Counted from the first letter of the stretch, positions 9,456-26,985 are shown. The stretch is 64,000 nt of DNA from Acetobacteraceae bacterium (GCA_044358135.1 JBIKOJ010000002.1:10922-74921); one strand, 5' to 3'. Program-made: numbers and translations. Notes: a model not told the origin generated them from the letters alone.

Positions 9456-9986
9456 CTACCACGGCCCCTCGGGCAGCGAGCAGTTCAGGGTGGTCACCAC
9501 ATAGACCCCCCGGCGCAGCCGGCGCAGCGCGACGACATCGCACCCCTCGCCACCCCACAGCGCGGAGGCGACATCCAGGGTCAGCGCATCGCCGGGGTCC
9601 GACACCAGGAACGCCACGTTCGTCATCCCCGCGATCCCCCACGCGTCCCACTCGCGCAACACCTCCCGCCGGGCCAGGGCCTCCTCATGCCCGAAGGACC
9701 ACAGCAAGAACCAGAGCTGGTCGCGCGGCCAGGCCAGAAGATAACCGGCAGTCGGAATCAGCCCCAGCACCGCCACGACCGCCAGGAACAACGGCAGGTC
9801 GGTGGCGGGCCGTCGACGGATCACGGCAACCAACGTCGCCACGCCCAGGAACAACGCCAGCGGAGAAATCACCAGGATCATCAGCCCGTACAGCAGGAAC
9901 TGCCCGAACCCATTGCCGGCATCGACCATCCCATAGGCGGCGGCGCCCGCCACCACCGCCAGCGGCGCGCGCCACGGGCCGTTCAC
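9456..9986 (-). CDS. Hypothetical membrane protein
   Basis: GTG 9986 overlaps the TGA of the upstream hydrolase (GTGA). Three to four hydrophobic helices, then a soluble tail. An alternative ATG start (MVDAGNG) exists. Confidence 0.6.
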   Translation of the reverse strand: MNGPWRAPLAVVAGAAAYGMVDAGNGFGQFLLYGLMILVISPLALFLGVATLVAVIRRRPATDLPLFLAVVAVLGLIPTAGYLLAWPRDQLWFLLWSFGHEEALARREVLREWDAWGIAGMTNVAFLVSDPGDALTLDVASALWGGEGCDVVALRRLRRGVYVVTTLNCSLPEGPW

Positions 9987-10939
9987 GTCGTGGCGACGCG
10001 CCCCAGCCAAGGCACCAGCGCCGCCAGGAACCCCTTGGTGTTCTGCGAAGGCACCCCGTGCCCCGCCTTCTCCACCGTCACCAGCTCGCCCTTCGGCAGT
10101 GCATCCCGCAGCCGCTCCGCCGCGTCGGGCGCCAGGATGTTGCTCGTCTCGCCCCGCACCACCAGCACCGGCAACTCGAACCTGCCGCAATCCTCCAGCG
10201 TCACGTTGTCCCCGGGCTTCTGGCCCGGCCGCAGCCCCAGCCGGCGCAGGGTGGCGTCGCACTTGCTGATGTACTTGCCGTCCACCCGCTCGAACATGTT
10301 GTACTTCACCGTGCGTTCGATGTGCTCGCGCGGCCGGTACGGATCGTATTTCCGCACGTTCTCGATGAAGTGCTCCAGATTGTCGAACTCGTTGTTGGCC
10401 GCCACGAACCCCGCGATCTGCGCCCGCCCGGCATCCGAGATCTCCGGCCCGATATCCACGATGCACAGCGCCTTCATGCTGCCCGCATGGTCGCGCGCCA
10501 GCAGCATCCCGTTGCGCCCACCCATCGAATGCCCCACCACCACCGGGGAGCCACCACCCACCGCCGCCAGGAACGAAGCCGCATCCTGCGCCATCGCCCG
10601 CCCGGAATAGTCCACGTCCCGCGCCCACTCGCTGTCGCCATGGCCGCGCTGGTCCAGCGCCAGCACCCGATACGTCTTCGCCAGGTGCAAACTCACCAGG
10701 TCCCACGAATGCGCCTGCTGGTGCCCGCCATGCAGCAGCACCACCGTCGGCGCATCGGCCCGGCCCCATTCCAGGTAATGGAAGCGATGCCCCCGCAGCA
10801 CGATGTTCCGCGCCGCATAGGGCACGCTGGGATCATGCTCGATCCCCAGCTCGCCCGCCGATGTCAGCAGGCTGCGGAACTCGTCCGTCCCGGTCATGTC
10901 GAAGGCATCGCTGCCGGGGGCGGAGATGTTGAGATTCAT
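9983..10939 (-). CDS. Alpha/beta hydrolase
   Basis: HGGHQ oxyanion region, nucleophile elbow GHSMGG, and a late His (AGHGV). Confidence 0.9.
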   Translation of the reverse strand: MNLNISAPGSDAFDMTGTDEFRSLLTSAGELGIEHDPSVPYAARNIVLRGHRFHYLEWGRADAPTVVLLHGGHQQAHSWDLVSLHLAKTYRVLALDQRGHGDSEWARDVDYSGRAMAQDAASFLAAVGGGSPVVVGHSMGGRNGMLLARDHAGSMKALCIVDIGPEISDAGRAQIAGFVAANNEFDNLEHFIENVRKYDPYRPREHIERTVKYNMFERVDGKYISKCDATLRRLGLRPGQKPGDNVTLEDCGRFELPVLVVRGETSNILAPDAAERLRDALPKGELVTVEKAGHGVPSQNTKGFLAALVPWLGRVATT

Positions 10940-11049
10940 GCGCGATATCCCGCTGGTCGTTTCCGGGCGAAACCATAGGGCGCGTTCCCAGGGACTGTCA
11001 CGCCACCGCCATTGCGCTAACCTCCGGCCAAAGACCCGGAGACGCCCAG

Positions 11050-22405: not shown

Positions 22406-22810
22406 ATGAACGACGCTGAAGACATGGCGGGTGCGCGTGCCTGCATGGACGGCTTCATGGAGGCGTTCAACCGCGAGGATCTGCAGGCGCTGCGGGAGAA
22501 GTGGTTCCACTACCCGCATGTGCGCTTCCACAGCGGCAAGGTAACGATCTTCCAGACCGCCGAGGAGCATCGCAACAACCTGGTGTGGCAGCAGCGCGAC
22601 GCTGCCCGCGGGCAATCGGCGGGCTGGGCGCGCACGGCGTGGGACTATGTGGAACCGATCGACGCCGCCGCGGGCAAGGTGCATTTCCGGGTGCAGTTCA
22701 CCCGCTATCGCGCCGATGGCTCGGCGATCGGCAGCTACAAGTCGCTGTATATCGTCACGTTCAAGGACGGGCGCTGGGGAATCCAAGGGCGGTCGAGCTG
22801 GGCCGAATAG
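22406..22810 (+). CDS. NTF2-like fold hypothetical protein (its 3' end is the left direct repeat)
   Basis: Pattern ACMDGFMEAFNREDLQALREKWF...KVHFRVQFTRYRADGS...IVTFKDGRWGIQGRS. Confidence 0.7.
   Translation: MNDAEDMAGARACMDGFMEAFNREDLQALREKWFHYPHVRFHSGKVTIFQTAEEHRNNLVWQQRDAARGQSAGWARTAWDYVEPIDAAAGKVHFRVQFTRYRADGSAIGSYKSLYIVTFKDGRWGIQGRSSWAE
22627..22809 (+). repeat. Direct repeat, left copy (DR-L)
   Basis: Matches 26047-26229 at a constant offset of 3420 bp, with 4 mismatches counted by eye (22639, 22646, 22750, 22786). Confidence 0.95.
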
Positions 22811-22814
22811 GCGG

Positions 22815-25800
22815 TCACTGGCGGGTCGGCGGGACAGGCGGGCAGGCGCGCTCGGGGAAGAAGCCGAGGATCGGGACGGCGTAGCCCCGGCGCAGCTCGA
22901 TGCGCTGGCCTTCGTCGGTCCAGCGCAGCAGGCGAAGGCATTCGTGGCGGTACTCGGTCCAGAGCGAACTGAGGGCGAAGACGCCGAGATAGCCCAGCGA
23001 CTCGCCGGTTTCGGCGTTCCAGGCATCGGTGTGACCGCCGGCGCGTTGCGCCAGGACGAGGCGGTTGTCGTGGCTGAAGTATGTTCGGGTAAGGTCGCTG
23101 AGTGTGGCGGCAGTGAGCAGCGATGCCGTTCCAGCTGAGTGGTCGAGGCGCCAGAGCTCGAACCGGTCGCGGGCGTCGGCACGGACGACAACTGCGCGAT
23201 CGTAGGACTGGGAGAACTGGAGTTCGTCGTTCGATCCCACGCGCAACCCGGCAGCCGCAATGGGTTGGGAGCGCGATTTTGGCCAGACCATCAGATGCCC
23301 GAGGCTCTCATGTGCCCAACTGACATGGGGCGCGCCGCTCCAGTAAGTCGTTCGCGGCGAAGGCCCGAACGGCGTGATCGCATCGCCGAAGCGGCCCACG
23401 GCTAGGTCGAGCGGCCACAGCATATCTCCGACCGGTCGATAGTGGATGAACATCAGCGTGCTGGCACCCGAGAGGTAGGCCCAATCGACACTCACGGTCG
23501 GGGCACCTGGCTGCCCGCGCCCTGTTCCGGCAAGAATGGGGAGTGCGGGGTCGGTCGGTACATGACGGGGTGCAGACACATCGAAACCCGGTGCATCTCC
23601 CTTGGGTCGGTAGCGAATATCCGTGATCGCGATGCTGCCGTCCTGCTTCGACACGACGAGCCACGCCAACTCAGGCTCGGCACCGTGGCCGAACAGGCCG
23701 AGCAGGCGATCGCCATCCGCCAGTTCGCGCTTCAGGACGGTCTTGCCTGTTTGCGGAGACATGAGAACGAGAGTGAGCGTTTCGTCACCCACGAGGACCC
23801 ATCCGCGAAGATAACGGGCAGCAAAAGGACTCCGCTCAACCCCTCCGCCGAAACCGTCTTGTTTCTTCCTTTCAACCGTTTCACTCCAGAATATCCCAGC
23901 GTTATTCTGGAAATTTATTCCAATCCAATTGCCATAATTCACGCCTTCGACTTCGAATTCTATGATATTCGGATCCTTATAATGATCATTATATTGCGCC
24001 GGACTAGAAATCCTTGGCAAGGCCAATAGCCCCCCGAGACGGTACGCGGGATCCGGGTCAATGCGTCTCTCAACATTGGATTTCGGATCCCATCCAACCA
24101 TCCCTTCATGCGGTGCACCGGACCAAAGCGTATCGGAGCGATGGTATCGGAAGAAGCGTTCCCGACGCAGGTGAAGTCTGGCGCCGGAGTCCAGGCTCCA
24201 CACCGACGAGGGGAACTGTTCATTATTCGAGTGGGCGGCGACCATCAGCAGGTGGCGCTCGCTGGCGGCGCCGAAAGGTGTCACGGAAAGGCTATAGGCG
24301 GAACGCCCCGGTTGACCGTCCCAATGGCTGCCCGGCGGATCGACAGGCTGCCACCGGCGCTCCGTCGCAAGAGCGAGAACCCCAACAGTGGCCAAGGTGC
24401 CGATGGCCAGGGTGGTAAGGGCCGGGCGGCCGTAGCCGTACAGCAGGCTGCGCCGCAAAATGGTGCGGGCCTCGGCACGCTGGAGCAGCGCCGGCGGGGC
24501 GTGGCGGCGGATGGTGCGCAGGTTGGCCAACGGGATCAGCTTGCGGCGGCCGGCGCGGATCTCGGCGAGATGGAACTCTAGCTCGTTGGCCGCCGATTCC
24601 GCCTGCGTCGACTGCTCCTCGGTGGCAATGCGGATCGGCTGGACCAGATAGTCGTGAATCAGCGACCAGGCGCGCGACCCGGCAGCGTTGGTGGCAACAA
24701 CCACTCGGCCCTGTTCCAGAAGCTCCATTACGCCGGCCACCTGCGCCTCGGTGACCCTCGGCCCGGGGGCCCCTTCGCGGGCGCGGGCGGCGAGATCGGC
24801 GGCGGCCTGCGGCTGCGGCACCTTCTTGTTGGCCGGCATGTCGCAGAGCTGGCGCAGCAACGCGCGGGTAAGCACCGGCTCGCCGGTGGCTTCGATGATG
24901 GTGCGCAGGTACCGCGAGCGCAGGCCGGGGGCACCGCCCTGGCGGCGGTAGTGGTCGACGGTCAGGGTTCCGTGCAGGGCGCCGCAGACCACCTGGAGGT
25001 CGGCGGGGCGGACCGTGTCCTCCACTGCAAGGTCGCGCGCGATCAGCCCCGGCAGCGCGTCGTCGAGAACCAGCCCGTCGCGCCCGGCGCACTCGCGGAT
25101 CACGTCCTGCGCTTCGCCGGCGGTGAAGTTCGCCACCGCAACCGTGTCCTGCAGGGCGATGCCGGCCGGCAGGCGGGCGGCAACCTCACGCATGTCGGCC
25201 AGGAACTCCTTGCGCATGCCGATCACCAGGCGAACCGGTCGCGCCATCAGGTCGGCCAACAGGGCGCCAAGGGCTTCGCGTTCTGCCGGGGCGCGGAAGC
25301 GCGTCAATGGCTCCTCGAACTGGTCAAGGATCAGGAAGGCGTGCTTGCCGGCTGCCGGCACGAGGGCATCGGCGCTGCGGCGCAGCTCGGCCAGAGTTGC
25401 GGCAAAAGCGTCGGCCGCGGACTGGCCTGGGGTTGGCCGGGCGAAGCGGTACACCAGCGCCGCGGCATGCCCGTCGCGGCGCAGCGCGGCGAGCAGGCCG
25501 CATTCCAGCTGCGAACTCTTGCCGGCGCCGCTTTCGCCGTGCACGACCATGATCGCGCGGTCCGGCTCCAATGCAAGCCGCGCCAGTTCGGCGGTGGCAC
25601 TGCGGCGCTGCGCGCCCGGCAGGGTGTCGCCTTCGCGAAACCGGCTCAGGCCGCGAAAGGCGAGCCCCTCGCGCGCCTGGGGGGCAAGGGCCTCGCGGGC
25701 CTCGGTGCGCACGGCCTCGCGGCTGCGCCGCCGGGCAAGAAGGTAGACGGTCGCCCCAAGCCCGACGGCGAGGAGCGCCCCCGCGACAATCGGGGCCCAT

Positions 25801-25943
25801 TGCTCCGGCAGGCTGAAGCCGGACGCCAAGGCAAGGGCAATGGCCCCAAATGCCGGGCCGAGTTCCCTCTTGGCTCGCTCGGCCAGATCCAGGACCTGGC
25901 GCACCCGATCGAAATAACTGCCAGGCGGCACCGGATCGCTCAT
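22815..25943 (-). CDS. Membrane-anchored STAND-like (nSTAND/NACHT-type) P-loop NTPase with an unassigned ~510-aa C-terminal domain
   Basis: 1042 aa from ATG 25943. Two N-terminal hydrophobic helices (aa ~31-70). FRGLSRFREGD, Walker A VVHGESGAGKSS (nt ~25515-25538) and Walker B AFLILDQFEE (nt ~25311-25340). A third helix at aa ~507-527. The C-terminal region contains a repeated WSGAPH motif. Confidence 0.85.
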   Translation of the reverse strand: MSDPVPPGSYFDRVRQVLDLAERAKRELGPAFGAIALALASGFSLPEQWAPIVAGALLAVGLGATVYLLARRRSREAVRTEAREALAPQAREGLAFRGLSRFREGDTLPGAQRRSATAELARLALEPDRAIMVVHGESGAGKSSQLECGLLAALRRDGHAAALVYRFARPTPGQSAADAFAATLAELRRSADALVPAAGKHAFLILDQFEEPLTRFRAPAEREALGALLADLMARPVRLVIGMRKEFLADMREVAARLPAGIALQDTVAVANFTAGEAQDVIRECAGRDGLVLDDALPGLIARDLAVEDTVRPADLQVVCGALHGTLTVDHYRRQGGAPGLRSRYLRTIIEATGEPVLTRALLRQLCDMPANKKVPQPQAAADLAARAREGAPGPRVTEAQVAGVMELLEQGRVVVATNAAGSRAWSLIHDYLVQPIRIATEEQSTQAESAANELEFHLAEIRAGRRKLIPLANLRTIRRHAPPALLQRAEARTILRRSLLYGYGRPALTTLAIGTLATVGVLALATERRWQPVDPPGSHWDGQPGRSAYSLSVTPFGAASERHLLMVAAHSNNEQFPSSVWSLDSGARLHLRRERFFRYHRSDTLWSGAPHEGMVGWDPKSNVERRIDPDPAYRLGGLLALPRISSPAQYNDHYKDPNIIEFEVEGVNYGNWIGINFQNNAGIFWSETVERKKQDGFGGGVERSPFAARYLRGWVLVGDETLTLVLMSPQTGKTVLKRELADGDRLLGLFGHGAEPELAWLVVSKQDGSIAITDIRYRPKGDAPGFDVSAPRHVPTDPALPILAGTGRGQPGAPTVSVDWAYLSGASTLMFIHYRPVGDMLWPLDLAVGRFGDAITPFGPSPRTTYWSGAPHVSWAHESLGHLMVWPKSRSQPIAAAGLRVGSNDELQFSQSYDRAVVVRADARDRFELWRLDHSAGTASLLTAATLSDLTRTYFSHDNRLVLAQRAGGHTDAWNAETGESLGYLGVFALSSLWTEYRHECLRLLRWTDEGQRIELRRGYAVPILGFFPERACPPVPPTRQ

Positions 25944-26046
25944 GCGGGGCTGATCATTGCCATTGGACCTTCCGCTGAAACAACGAGCGAATACTGCGCA
26001 GGGGCGGCCAGGGGCGCAAGCGGTGGCGCCGGCCGTTCCGCCAGTT

Positions 26047-26230
26047 GGCGCGCACGGCATGGGACGATGTGGAACCGATCGACGCCGCCGCGGGCAAGGT
26101 GCATTTCCGGGTGCAGTTCACCCGCTATCGCGCCGATGGCTCGGCGATCGGCAGCTACAAGTCGCTGTACATCGTCACGTTCAAGGACGGGCGCTGGGGA
26201 ATCCAGGGGCGGTCGAGCTGGGCCGAATAA
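26047..26230 (+). pseudogene. Direct repeat, right copy (DR-R): orphan duplicate of the last ~60 codons of the NTF2-like gene
   Basis: The 61-aa track ORF 26045..26230 is a near-identical copy of the C-terminus of 22406..22810. It has no N-terminal half, no SD and no upstream context. Confidence 0.8.
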
Positions 26231-26325
26231 GCACTTGCCCCGATGGCGGAATAATATAAATCCTCGATCGTCTTGGGGAGAATACGGCAGCGTGCCGCCT
26301 TGGCGATCCGGCCGGGGCGGCTGGG

Positions 26326-26811
26326 ATGTTCCGTGGCCGTACCGCCGGGGCGCAGGGGTCTCTCGTGCATCTTGTCCAGCGGCTTTACCGGAGCGTGATC
26401 CTTCCGGCTGAGATCGACCGCCGGGTTGTGACCGGCATCGTGCCGGCATTGCGGACCCTGCCGGGCTTCATCAGCTTCACCACCGTTGATTTCGGCGGCG
26501 GCCGGTTCGGCAGCTTCACGCTGTATGCCCGCCGGGAGGAGGCGGAACGCGTTTCGGCGGCGGCACCCAGCGTGGTGCGCAACTCGCTGGGCGACCTGAT
26601 CCCGGGCACGGCAGAACTGCGCGGCGGCGAGGTGCTGCGCCGCATGCGGACCGCTGGAAAGGCATCGGTGCTGGTGATGCGGCGCTACGACGGCTGCCCG
26701 GACCCGGCGGAGCTGGACCGGCGGATCGCCACGCAGATGCTGCCCCGCTTCGCCGCGCTGCCGGGCTTCCATGGCTACTGCCTGGTGGATGACGGCGCGG
26801 GGGCCGCGTGA
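26326..26811 (+). CDS. Tandem-repeat small alpha/beta-barrel-like (possibly ABM-type) protein, apparently frame-shifted near its 3' end
   Basis: Two internal repeats (LP..ALPGF....VD.G.G). The second repeat continues in another frame (VSSLNLFGTPEDA..., 26808-26969). An alternative start is GTG 26365. The fold assignment is weak. Confidence 0.5.
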   Translation: MFRGRTAGAQGSLVHLVQRLYRSVILPAEIDRRVVTGIVPALRTLPGFISFTTVDFGGGRFGSFTLYARREEAERVSAAAPSVVRNSLGDLIPGTAELRGGEVLRRMRTAGKASVLVMRRYDGCPDPAELDRRIATQMLPRFAALPGFHGYCLVDDGAGAA

Positions 26812-26985
26812 GTTCGCTGAACCTGTTCGGCACGCCGGAGGATGCCGACATGCTGGGCGTGCTGGCGGGCCCGCTGGTGCAGCGCCACCTTTCGGACCTG
26901 CTGCCGCTGGCGCCGGAGACGCTGGTGGGGCAGGTGCTGAGCGAGACCCTGGCCGCGGAGCCAGGCTGATCCGATAACCGAACGG

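Follow-up and report, generated by a model that had tools for sequence, protein, structure and literature searches.

We analyzed a 64,000-nucleotide (nt) stretch of DNA from Acetobacteraceae bacterium (GCA_044358135.1 JBIKOJ010000002.1:10922-74921), hereafter the window, in whose coordinates positions are given, and focused on a gene on its minus strand that encodes a protein of 1042 amino acids (aa). The gene is a rare, intact sub-architecture of a described family, in which an nSTAND1 nucleoside triphosphatase (NTPase) is combined with a WD40-type sensor; it is carried as a lone-gene insertion and is not categorically new. With moderate confidence, we propose that its product acts as a self-contained inner-membrane switch resembling Apaf-1 and nucleotide-binding leucine-rich repeat (NLR) receptors, with a periplasmic sensor and an N-terminal helical hairpin as the output. 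Among the parts of this proposal, the architecture and topology are likely, a role in conflict or defense is about evenly balanced, and a pore-type output is the least certain step.

The gene occupies 22815..25943 (minus strand) as one open reading frame (ORF) that nearly fills the inserted segment, and it is complete according to the ORF list, the metagenome gene calls, and full-length homologues. An alternative in-frame ATG upstream, at 26060, would add 39 residues; the Met start at 25943 is favored, because the homologue alignments all begin near it and independent gene calls in three JGI metagenomes agree on the identical 1042-aa product. An earlier reading made from the sequence alone (the original prediction) had described this single minus-strand ORF between direct repeats, a series of motifs, a WSGAPH repeat, and two N-terminal hydrophobic helices followed by a later one, and each of these was located in the order stated. 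The motifs are FRGLSRFREGD (aa 96-106), the Walker A motif VVHGESGAGKSS (aa 133-144; 25512-25547), the Walker B motif AFLILDQFEE (aa 202-211; 25311-25340), and AWSLIHDYLVQPI (aa 425-437), which contains a conserved HDY motif with the family consensus SLIHDYLVEPIKLAT. Analysis of Kyte-Doolittle hydropathy in 19-residue windows gave exactly three hydrophobic segments, at aa 28-46, 48-71, and 507-528.

The central region (aa 96-435; 24639..25658, minus strand), which includes both Walker motifs, matched the Pfam family nSTAND1 (PF20703) at a score of 99.1 bits, above the curated gathering cutoff of 27.1 (E = 5.3e-28; positions 2-342 of the 379 in the profile), and weak Pfam matches to NACHT, AAA_22, and AAA_16 were found in the NTPase region. 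PF20703 was also detected in 13 of the 14 homologues found and in a variant with a ParA-like N-terminus (P0142). Residues G136, G139, G141, K142, S144, D207, Q208, E210, and E211 were invariant in 27 sequences, as were about 40 further positions across the 27 homologues, and the AlphaFold2 (AF2) model reached a predicted local distance difference test (pLDDT) score of about 90 in the NTPase. The intact P-loop (GxxGxGKS) and Walker B motif (hhhhDQxEE) imply an active nucleotide switch, and judged by profile and motifs the protein is a bona fide nSTAND1 STAND NTPase. This agrees with the STAND assignment made originally, and the outcome that would have contradicted it, an assignment of the central region to a non-STAND family, was not seen. 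The nSTAND1 clade was named by Kaur, Iyer, Burroughs & Aravind in 2021 and defined in counter-invader systems (PMC8195603). An N-terminal effector or adaptor is frequent in nSTAND1 proteins but is not part of the definition of the NTPase clade; here aa 1-95 hold the hairpin only, with no TIR, caspase, EAD, or similar domain. The Pfam, PADLOC, and NCBIfam searches likewise gave no recognizable enzymatic effector domain, as had been anticipated, and NCBIfam returned nothing useful for the 1042-aa protein.

The C-terminal part (aa 531-1042; 22818..24353, minus strand) was modeled by AF2 as an all-beta domain with four-strand periodicity, about 39 strands, and roughly ten blades. Foldseek matched this model to tandem WD40 proteins, BamB, and designed 8-blade propellers with E-values down to 1e-11. 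The full-length AF2 model, built with 27 sequences, had a pLDDT of 78 overall and 70-95 in most blades, and its top matches in the PDB were full-length Apaf-1 structures (3sfz, 5juy; E = 4e-16), with low global template modeling scores (0.15-0.19) because the domains are flexibly arranged. Compared with WD40 chains of the PDB, the family profile matched WRAP-T designs (1e-23), Pwp2 (1e-16), PkwA (4e-16), WDR5 (2e-13), and Apaf-1 (3e-13). The propeller profile also matched 34,506 library proteins at E <= 0.001; beyond the full-length family, each of the top matches listed hit the blades at profile positions 340-460 between 5 and 26 times, as is typical of WD40 arrays. These positions correspond to aa ~870-990, where the blades resemble classical WD40 repeats. 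None of the Pfam WD40 models reached E <= 0.1 on this propeller, and a word-indexed search with the propeller profile recovered almost nothing, so that an exhaustive HMMER search was used. Propeller copies on plasmids were not found in PLSDB. On the strength of the models and profiles, the C-terminal ~510 aa are best described as a divergent WD40-type beta-propeller, not a novel domain. The original prediction, which had seen no WD40 signature there and had considered the domain unassignable, is corrected on this point by the very structure comparison it had proposed. The nSTAND1 family is characterized by repeat sensors built of WD40, TPR, or FGE superstructures, and a sensor of this kind was found here by the profile searches and the predicted fold. 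Overall, the protein combines a STAND NTPase with a WD40-type propeller in the manner of Apaf-1, to which three putative membrane helices are added. As a side observation, WSGAPH is present in this domain at aa 607-612 (24108-24125) and aa 868-873 (23325-23342); the copies are 261 residues apart, are written with different codons, and are not kept in homologues, and they may be a trace of duplicated propeller halves or a coincidence.

The three hydrophobic segments are 19-24 residues long, with a mean hydropathy of 1.5-2.2 and values up to 2.2-3.2, and their positions are kept across homologues of 23-36% identity. The first two form the N-terminal hairpin (25731..25862, minus strand), which AF2 modeled as helices 10-42 and 50-84, and which is kept in all 26 homologues with a classical Walker A NTPase domain. 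It is followed by the Arg-rich stretch LLARRRSRE, and the mean number of Lys and Arg residues (K+R) after the second transmembrane (TM) helix is 5.8. The third (TM3; 24360..24425, minus strand) belongs to a long AF2 helix (aa 490-526) and occurs in all family members, including the ParA-like variants. Its flanks are asymmetric in charge: over the 20 residues on each side, the 27 members average 4.9 K+R before the helix versus 2.5 after it, and 0.8 Asp and Glu residues versus 2.6. In addition, the window protein has six Cys residues, four in the NTPase and two in the propeller, C1002 (22938-22940) and C1034 (22842-22844). Of 28 members, 24 have the propeller pair; it is absent as a whole from P0013 and P0044, while P0161 retains one Cys and in P0031 the second lies just beyond the 70-residue window that was counted. 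This pattern would be expected of a structural disulfide in an oxidizing compartment, and C1002 and C1034 may form one. Three spans combined with a cytoplasmic NTPase place the N-terminus inside and the propeller outside; therefore, the N-terminus and NTPase are likely cytoplasmic, including the N-terminal side of TM3, and the propeller is likely periplasmic. The charge bias of TM3 and the conserved Cys pair thus support the extracytoplasmic C-terminal domain that had been proposed at the outset.

That such a topology is unusual, as was also claimed, proved overstated. In 44 of the 55 WD40-array matches that contain a Walker A motif, this motif is followed after 330-520 residues by a strongly hydrophobic helix with the charge asymmetry seen at TM3 (K+R 6.4 vs. 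3.3), and the order nSTAND1, helix, WD40 was confirmed with Pfam in P0032, P0033, P0035, P0040, and P0075. A TM helix between NTPase and propeller therefore appears, from these sequences, to be the norm for nSTAND1-WD40 proteins. One or more such helices were also present in 48 of the 62 WD40-array matches that lack Walker A; of these, P0041 was checked and proved to be a Ser/Thr kinase with the Pfam order kinase, helix, WD40. Predictions of periplasmic WD40 arrays behind a single TM helix exist for Ser/Thr kinases of planctomycetes (PMC11032199), and of periplasmic sensor domains for some STAND-associated targets of diversity-generating retroelements (DGRs; PMC10907252). The helix between NTPase and propeller is not discussed in PMC7159879 and PMC8195603, which define these systems. 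Given how common it is here, an extracytoplasmic location may apply to many 'Apaf-1-like' WD40 sensors of bacteria.

Among 5.8 billion proteins, a word-indexed search recovered 14 relatives; when the C-terminal profile was run exhaustively with HMMER against 1.84 billion cluster representatives, about 30 proteins aligned end to end. The family is therefore rare, comprising about 30 clusters at 50% identity. Its 26 full-length homologues are 23-36% identical and share one plan: hairpin, nSTAND1, HDY motif, Arg-rich juxtamembrane stretch (RRLIRRS), hydrophobic helix, and a C-terminal part of about 500 residues. The latter is poorly conserved except for invariant Trp residues and the conserved C-terminal module Y-D-x-x-C ... 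W-T-x-E-G ... G-F-x-P-x-x-x-C. In P0142 and P0144, a ParA-like AAA_31 domain stands in place of the hairpin and P-loop, and the C-terminal part of nSTAND1, the TM helix, the propeller, and the Cys pair are kept; therefore, the TM-propeller unit is a transferable, shuffled module. The scan of genome contigs returned generic nSTAND1 genes only, none with the N- or C-terminal regions of the subfamily among the matches listed, and the best genome matches of the NTPase region, among those listed, were mostly from cyanobacteria, actinobacteria, and Chloroflexota.

These features allow the protein to be placed among known systems. It shares with nSTAND1-WD40 proteins the NTPase family and the order of NTPase, single hydrophobic helix, and WD40-type propeller. 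The classical members carry long canonical WD40 arrays (7-17 matches) and have effector or adaptor regions at the N-terminus, whereas the subfamily of the window has a hairpin instead of the N-terminal domain, a Cys pair near the C-terminus, a hypervariable low-GC patch, and one compact propeller of ~510 aa that is too divergent for the Pfam WD40 models. What is specific to the subfamily is the hairpin in effector position, the compact divergent propeller, the Cys pair, and the lack of a conserved partner gene. Apaf-1 likewise joins a STAND NTPase to WD40 propellers that serve as the ligand sensor, but it is soluble and cytosolic with a pair of 7 and 8 blades, whereas the window protein lacks a CARD, has three membrane helices, and has a propeller that is predicted to be extracytoplasmic. 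In antiviral STANDs (Avs, bNACHT), a single gene also encodes an N-terminal output, a central STAND NTPase, and a C-terminal repeat sensor; however, the characterized Avs sensors, most of them TPR-like, recognize cytoplasmic phage proteins, whereas the extra helix after the NTPase would put the sensor of the window protein, which has no PADLOC match, beyond the cytoplasm. Ser/Thr kinase-TM-WD40 receptors of the PkwA type (PMC11032199) resemble it in having a cytoplasmic nucleotide-using module, a single TM helix, and a predicted periplasmic WD40 domain, but their module is a kinase and not a STAND NTPase, and they have no N-terminal hairpin. Tmn/YobI and KAP (PMC13001434) are comparable as single-polypeptide membrane P-loop NTPases that combine sensing with an output at the membrane. 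They differ in belonging to unrelated NTPase families with cytosolic-arm sensors and showed no homology in the Pfam and PADLOC searches; their TM helices lie within the P-loop domain in YobI and beside it in KAP. The idea of an undescribed system is accordingly too strong: the protein is absent from PADLOC, but it is a rare sub-architecture of the described nSTAND1 family.

The gene lies in a segment of 3234 nt (22813..26046), consisting of the gene and 103 nt upstream, that was inserted between two direct repeats of 186 nt (22627-22812 and 26047-26232) with 97% identity. The repeats correspond to the last 61 codons plus stop of a 134-aa gene (22406..22810, plus strand). By repeat search and alignment to empty sites, the first copy (22627..22812, plus strand) is the functional 3' end of this gene with its stop codon, and the second (26047..26232, plus strand) is an orphaned duplicate of that 3' end, followed by native downstream sequence. 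Metagenome contigs were scanned for relatives of the 134-aa protein, and three syntenic contigs (L088, L089, and L090) were found with a single repeat copy and no STAND gene, in which the 134-aa gene runs straight into the window sequence 3' of the second repeat. The flanks of L088 are 92-94% identical to the window on both sides. The alignment junctions fall exactly at 22812/22813 and 26046/26047, and the native-like portions are the left part of the first repeat and the right part of the second. The insertion is real because three syntenic relatives hold the empty site, which bears out the repeat-bounded insertion of the original prediction and answers its call for a presence/absence comparison.

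The insertion may have arisen by a Campbell-type single crossover with circular DNA bearing a homologous 186-nt segment, or alternatively by duplication of a 186-nt target with subsequent drift. Within the insert there is a single gene and no mobility gene; no integrase, transposase, or reverse transcriptase Pfam family was recorded for called genes within ~10 kb, and the window contains no tRNA. An integrase-mobilized island was rejected, as there is no recombinase within ~10 kb, there is no tRNA, and the repeats are a duplicated 3' gene end. A Logan contig (L002) that spans exactly one repeat period was considered as a circular excised form and was judged to be the expected break of a de Bruijn graph in a 186-nt repeat. 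Pfam, NCBIfam, and PADLOC gave no match to the 134-aa product of the target gene, which is widely conserved, with 60-96% identity in at least 80 metagenome loci from soils and freshwater; it is thus a small, conserved, function-unassigned protein, and the 3' end of its gene was duplicated by the insertion.

The sensor region is compositionally and evolutionarily distinct from the rest of the gene. The lowest-GC 1-kb bin of the window is 23001-24000 (0.606 vs. ~0.70), and the dip is concentrated in a patch of ~200 nt within the gene (23829..24032, minus strand; aa ~638-705) with 43% GC, compared with 67% for the gene overall. The GC content at third codon positions (GC3) of this patch is 42-54%, versus 85-92% further upstream in the gene. 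Its AF2 pLDDT is below 50, and it is the sole stretch that did not align between the window and a 97-98% identical strain (L001). This sister strain (L001, L002, GCA_041447055.1) also carries the insertion. At the nucleotide level, the two are 98-100% identical over the hairpin and P-loop and 94-98% over the remainder of the NTPase, dropping to 85-92% for the propeller and 67-73% for the patch. Synonymous divergence (dS) climbs from 0.03 through 0.10 and 0.23 to ~1.0 towards and within the sensor (~40-fold), and the ratio of nonsynonymous to synonymous divergence (dN/dS) is 0.14-0.4 in every segment. The latter indicates purifying selection, and the ~40-fold variation of dS with dN/dS below 1 indicates recombination with diverged alleles (mosaic). 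On the same grounds, positive selection is not supported as the driver of divergence in the sensor.

The GC3 dip recurs at the same place of the propeller in four of six family genes. Over some 500 codons of L006 (~9800-11000) and L172, in a genome of 69% GC, GC3 drops from 84-90% to 22-50%, and in L005 the drop is from ~70% to 32-36%; L003 and L171 have no dip. A host-like N-terminal machine with a foreign, hypervariable sensor would be expected of a receptor whose specificity is horizontally exchanged. The patch could be caused by cassette exchange from low-GC donors or by an AT-biased local mutational process. A DGR was rejected, as 23701-24150 has no second copy in the window and no reverse transcriptase Pfam family was recorded within ~10 kb.

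The neighborhoods of the homologues are not conserved, and none of them includes a conserved partner gene. A complete Septu system (PtuA, E = 2e-149; PtuB, E = 9e-76) is found at a distance of 367 nt from P0005, P0013 is flanked by an EcoEI_R_C gene and an HsdM/S gene (type I restriction-modification), and P0007 has a TPR-CHAT gene at 6.5 kb. These contexts hint at a possible association with defense islands. Two others, P0009 (L172 6395-11164) and P0010 (L006 7037-12000), lie between nepR-like and EcfG/PhyR-type sigma factor genes. Genes for NepR and an EcfG/PhyR-type sigma factor form the general stress response pair of alphaproteobacteria, and a functional tie of these two homologues to envelope or general stress signaling is possible. 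In L006, an ORF of 218 aa without an assigned function overlaps the start of the P0010 gene.

Based on these observations, a mechanism can be proposed for the nSTAND1 switch. A periplasmic ligand would bind the variable face of the propeller; speculatively, this could be a component of a phage tail or of phage ejection, an injected toxin, or a product of envelope damage. The signal would pass through TM3 and the long juxtamembrane helix (aa 490-526) and free an ADP-locked NTPase. ATP-dependent oligomerization, inferred from family knowledge of other STANDs, would then cluster the hairpins with TM3, three helices per protomer. The clustered hairpins would be the output, perturbing or permeabilizing the inner membrane and leading to growth arrest or abortive infection. 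The hairpin is proposed as the output because it sits where effectors are usually found and because there is neither another effector nor a conserved partner gene; pore-forming membrane effectors have been reported for some bacterial STANDs (PMC13001434), and a 'TM' effector label is used in PMC13581612. A role in conflict is favored by the definition of nSTAND1, the presence/absence polymorphism, the frameshift in the sister strain described below, the sensor dS, the GC3 patch, and two defense-adjacent homologues. A stronger form, in which the protein is an NLR-like immune receptor that surveys the periplasm, kills or arrests the cell via clustered TM hairpins, and has its specificity swapped by a low-GC cassette, is tentative and rather doubtful.

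Several points weigh against this proposal. The search for a known defense system that had been suggested originally matched no PADLOC model (0 families of PADLOC-DB v2 at E <= 0.1). All experimentally characterized antiviral STANDs sense cytoplasmic proteins (PMC13581612, PMC13001434), and a periplasmic trigger, hypothetical here, would be unprecedented among them. The predicted topology is based on hydropathy, charge bias, and the Cys pair. The hairpin had no Pfam, NCBIfam, or PADLOC match, a profile of 20 hairpin sequences found nothing on other proteins, and the hairpin could be a mere anchor; a known pore-forming or SLATT-like hairpin was rejected for lack of a Pfam match. The neighborhood survey was divided, with two of about seven contexts defense-adjacent and most others housekeeping, a sample too small for statistics.

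Among the alternatives, the strongest, which we consider possible, is a non-immune envelope receptor, whose propeller senses a cell-wall fragment, a polysaccharide, or a partner, whose nSTAND1 NTPase is a scaffold or switch that recruits unlinked partners, and whose hairpin is a second anchor. It has a parallel in the Ser/Thr kinase-TM-WD40 receptors (P0041; PMC11032199), and it would fit the position of P0009 and P0010 between nepR and the EcfG-type sigma factor gene, the ordinary metabolic and signaling genes next to the window copy, and the lack of an effector domain. However, the gene is absent in close syntenic relatives and frameshifted in the sister strain, it has no conserved neighbors, and the family is rare and patchy (14 matches per 5.8 billion sequences, ~30 clusters). 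Its sensor is moreover a hypervariable compositional mosaic, and such traits are typical of conflict genes, not of housekeeping sensors.

Improbable, in our view, is a wholly cytoplasmic or peripheral Apaf-1-like STAND that senses a cytoplasmic ligand as Avs does, with the hydrophobic segments acting as buried core or oligomerization helices or as re-entrant anchors. The ligands of the characterized antiviral STANDs and the AF2 confidence of the hairpin, only 50-67, would be in line with it, but it does not readily accommodate three hydrophobic segments of 19-24 residues held in position at 23-36% identity, a TM3 charge asymmetry that fits a membrane span, a Cys pair that is confined to the propeller and co-lost, and the near-universal occurrence of such a helix between NTPase or kinase domains and WD40 arrays.

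The frameshift bears on the weakest alternative. In the sister strain the gene is split by a +1 frameshift, due to a 31-nt length difference in the patch beside a C-run (window ~24020-24030) that has six C in the window and eight in the sister strain. It is located at 3198-3426 of L001 (reverse complement), the sequence is identical in JGI and Logan contigs, and a 394-aa fragment of the split gene was also called in the NCBI assembly. The frameshift could be pseudogenization or homopolymer phase variation. A decaying passenger gene without current function, left over from a past insertion, would agree with this frameshift, with the relatives that lack the gene, and with the absence of a recognizable promoter or terminator (no terminator and one promoter-like site, on the opposite strand within the gene; the Rfam scan gave no match), but it is very improbable given that the window allele is intact over 1042 codons, that the identical protein occurs in at least three further metagenomes, and that dN/dS is 0.14-0.4 with invariant catalytic residues.

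The proposed inner-membrane switch merits follow-up for its predicted extracytoplasmic sensor, the hairpin in effector position, and a hypervariable sensor cassette of low GC that recurs in homologues. The current view of bacterial STAND/NLR-type immunity is one of cytoplasmic pattern recognition, and this gene, together with the far more numerous nSTAND1-TM-WD40 proteins to which it belongs, predicts a repeat sensor outside and an ATPase switch inside. If confirmed, it would extend the compartments guarded by bacterial NLR-like receptors, provide a minimal single-gene model (~1040 aa, no partner genes) for how a STAND oligomer is activated across a membrane, and offer the compositionally foreign hypervariable patch as a handle on the exchange of sensor specificity. 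If the immune form is true, no STAND sensor before this one would have been shown to recognize an invader ahead of, or in the absence of, its entry into the cytoplasm, with phage ejection proteins, injected toxins of type VI secretion systems or bacteriocins, and periplasmic predators as examples. By extension, the very large class of nSTAND1-TM-WD40 and kinase-TM-WD40 proteins found in multicellular bacteria would then act as pattern receptors outside the cytoplasm, not in the cytosol. A plain envelope-signaling receptor would still document an unstudied receptor class.

Additionally, a difference between the window and L088 was found outside the insertion. The alignment of window 26326-26926 with L088 2517-2554 showed that the region just 3' of the insertion, which contains an ORF of 161 aa (26326..26811) with no Pfam match, is mostly missing or rearranged in L088. 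Therefore, the interval from the 134-aa gene to the metallophosphatase gene is variable independently of the STAND insertion.

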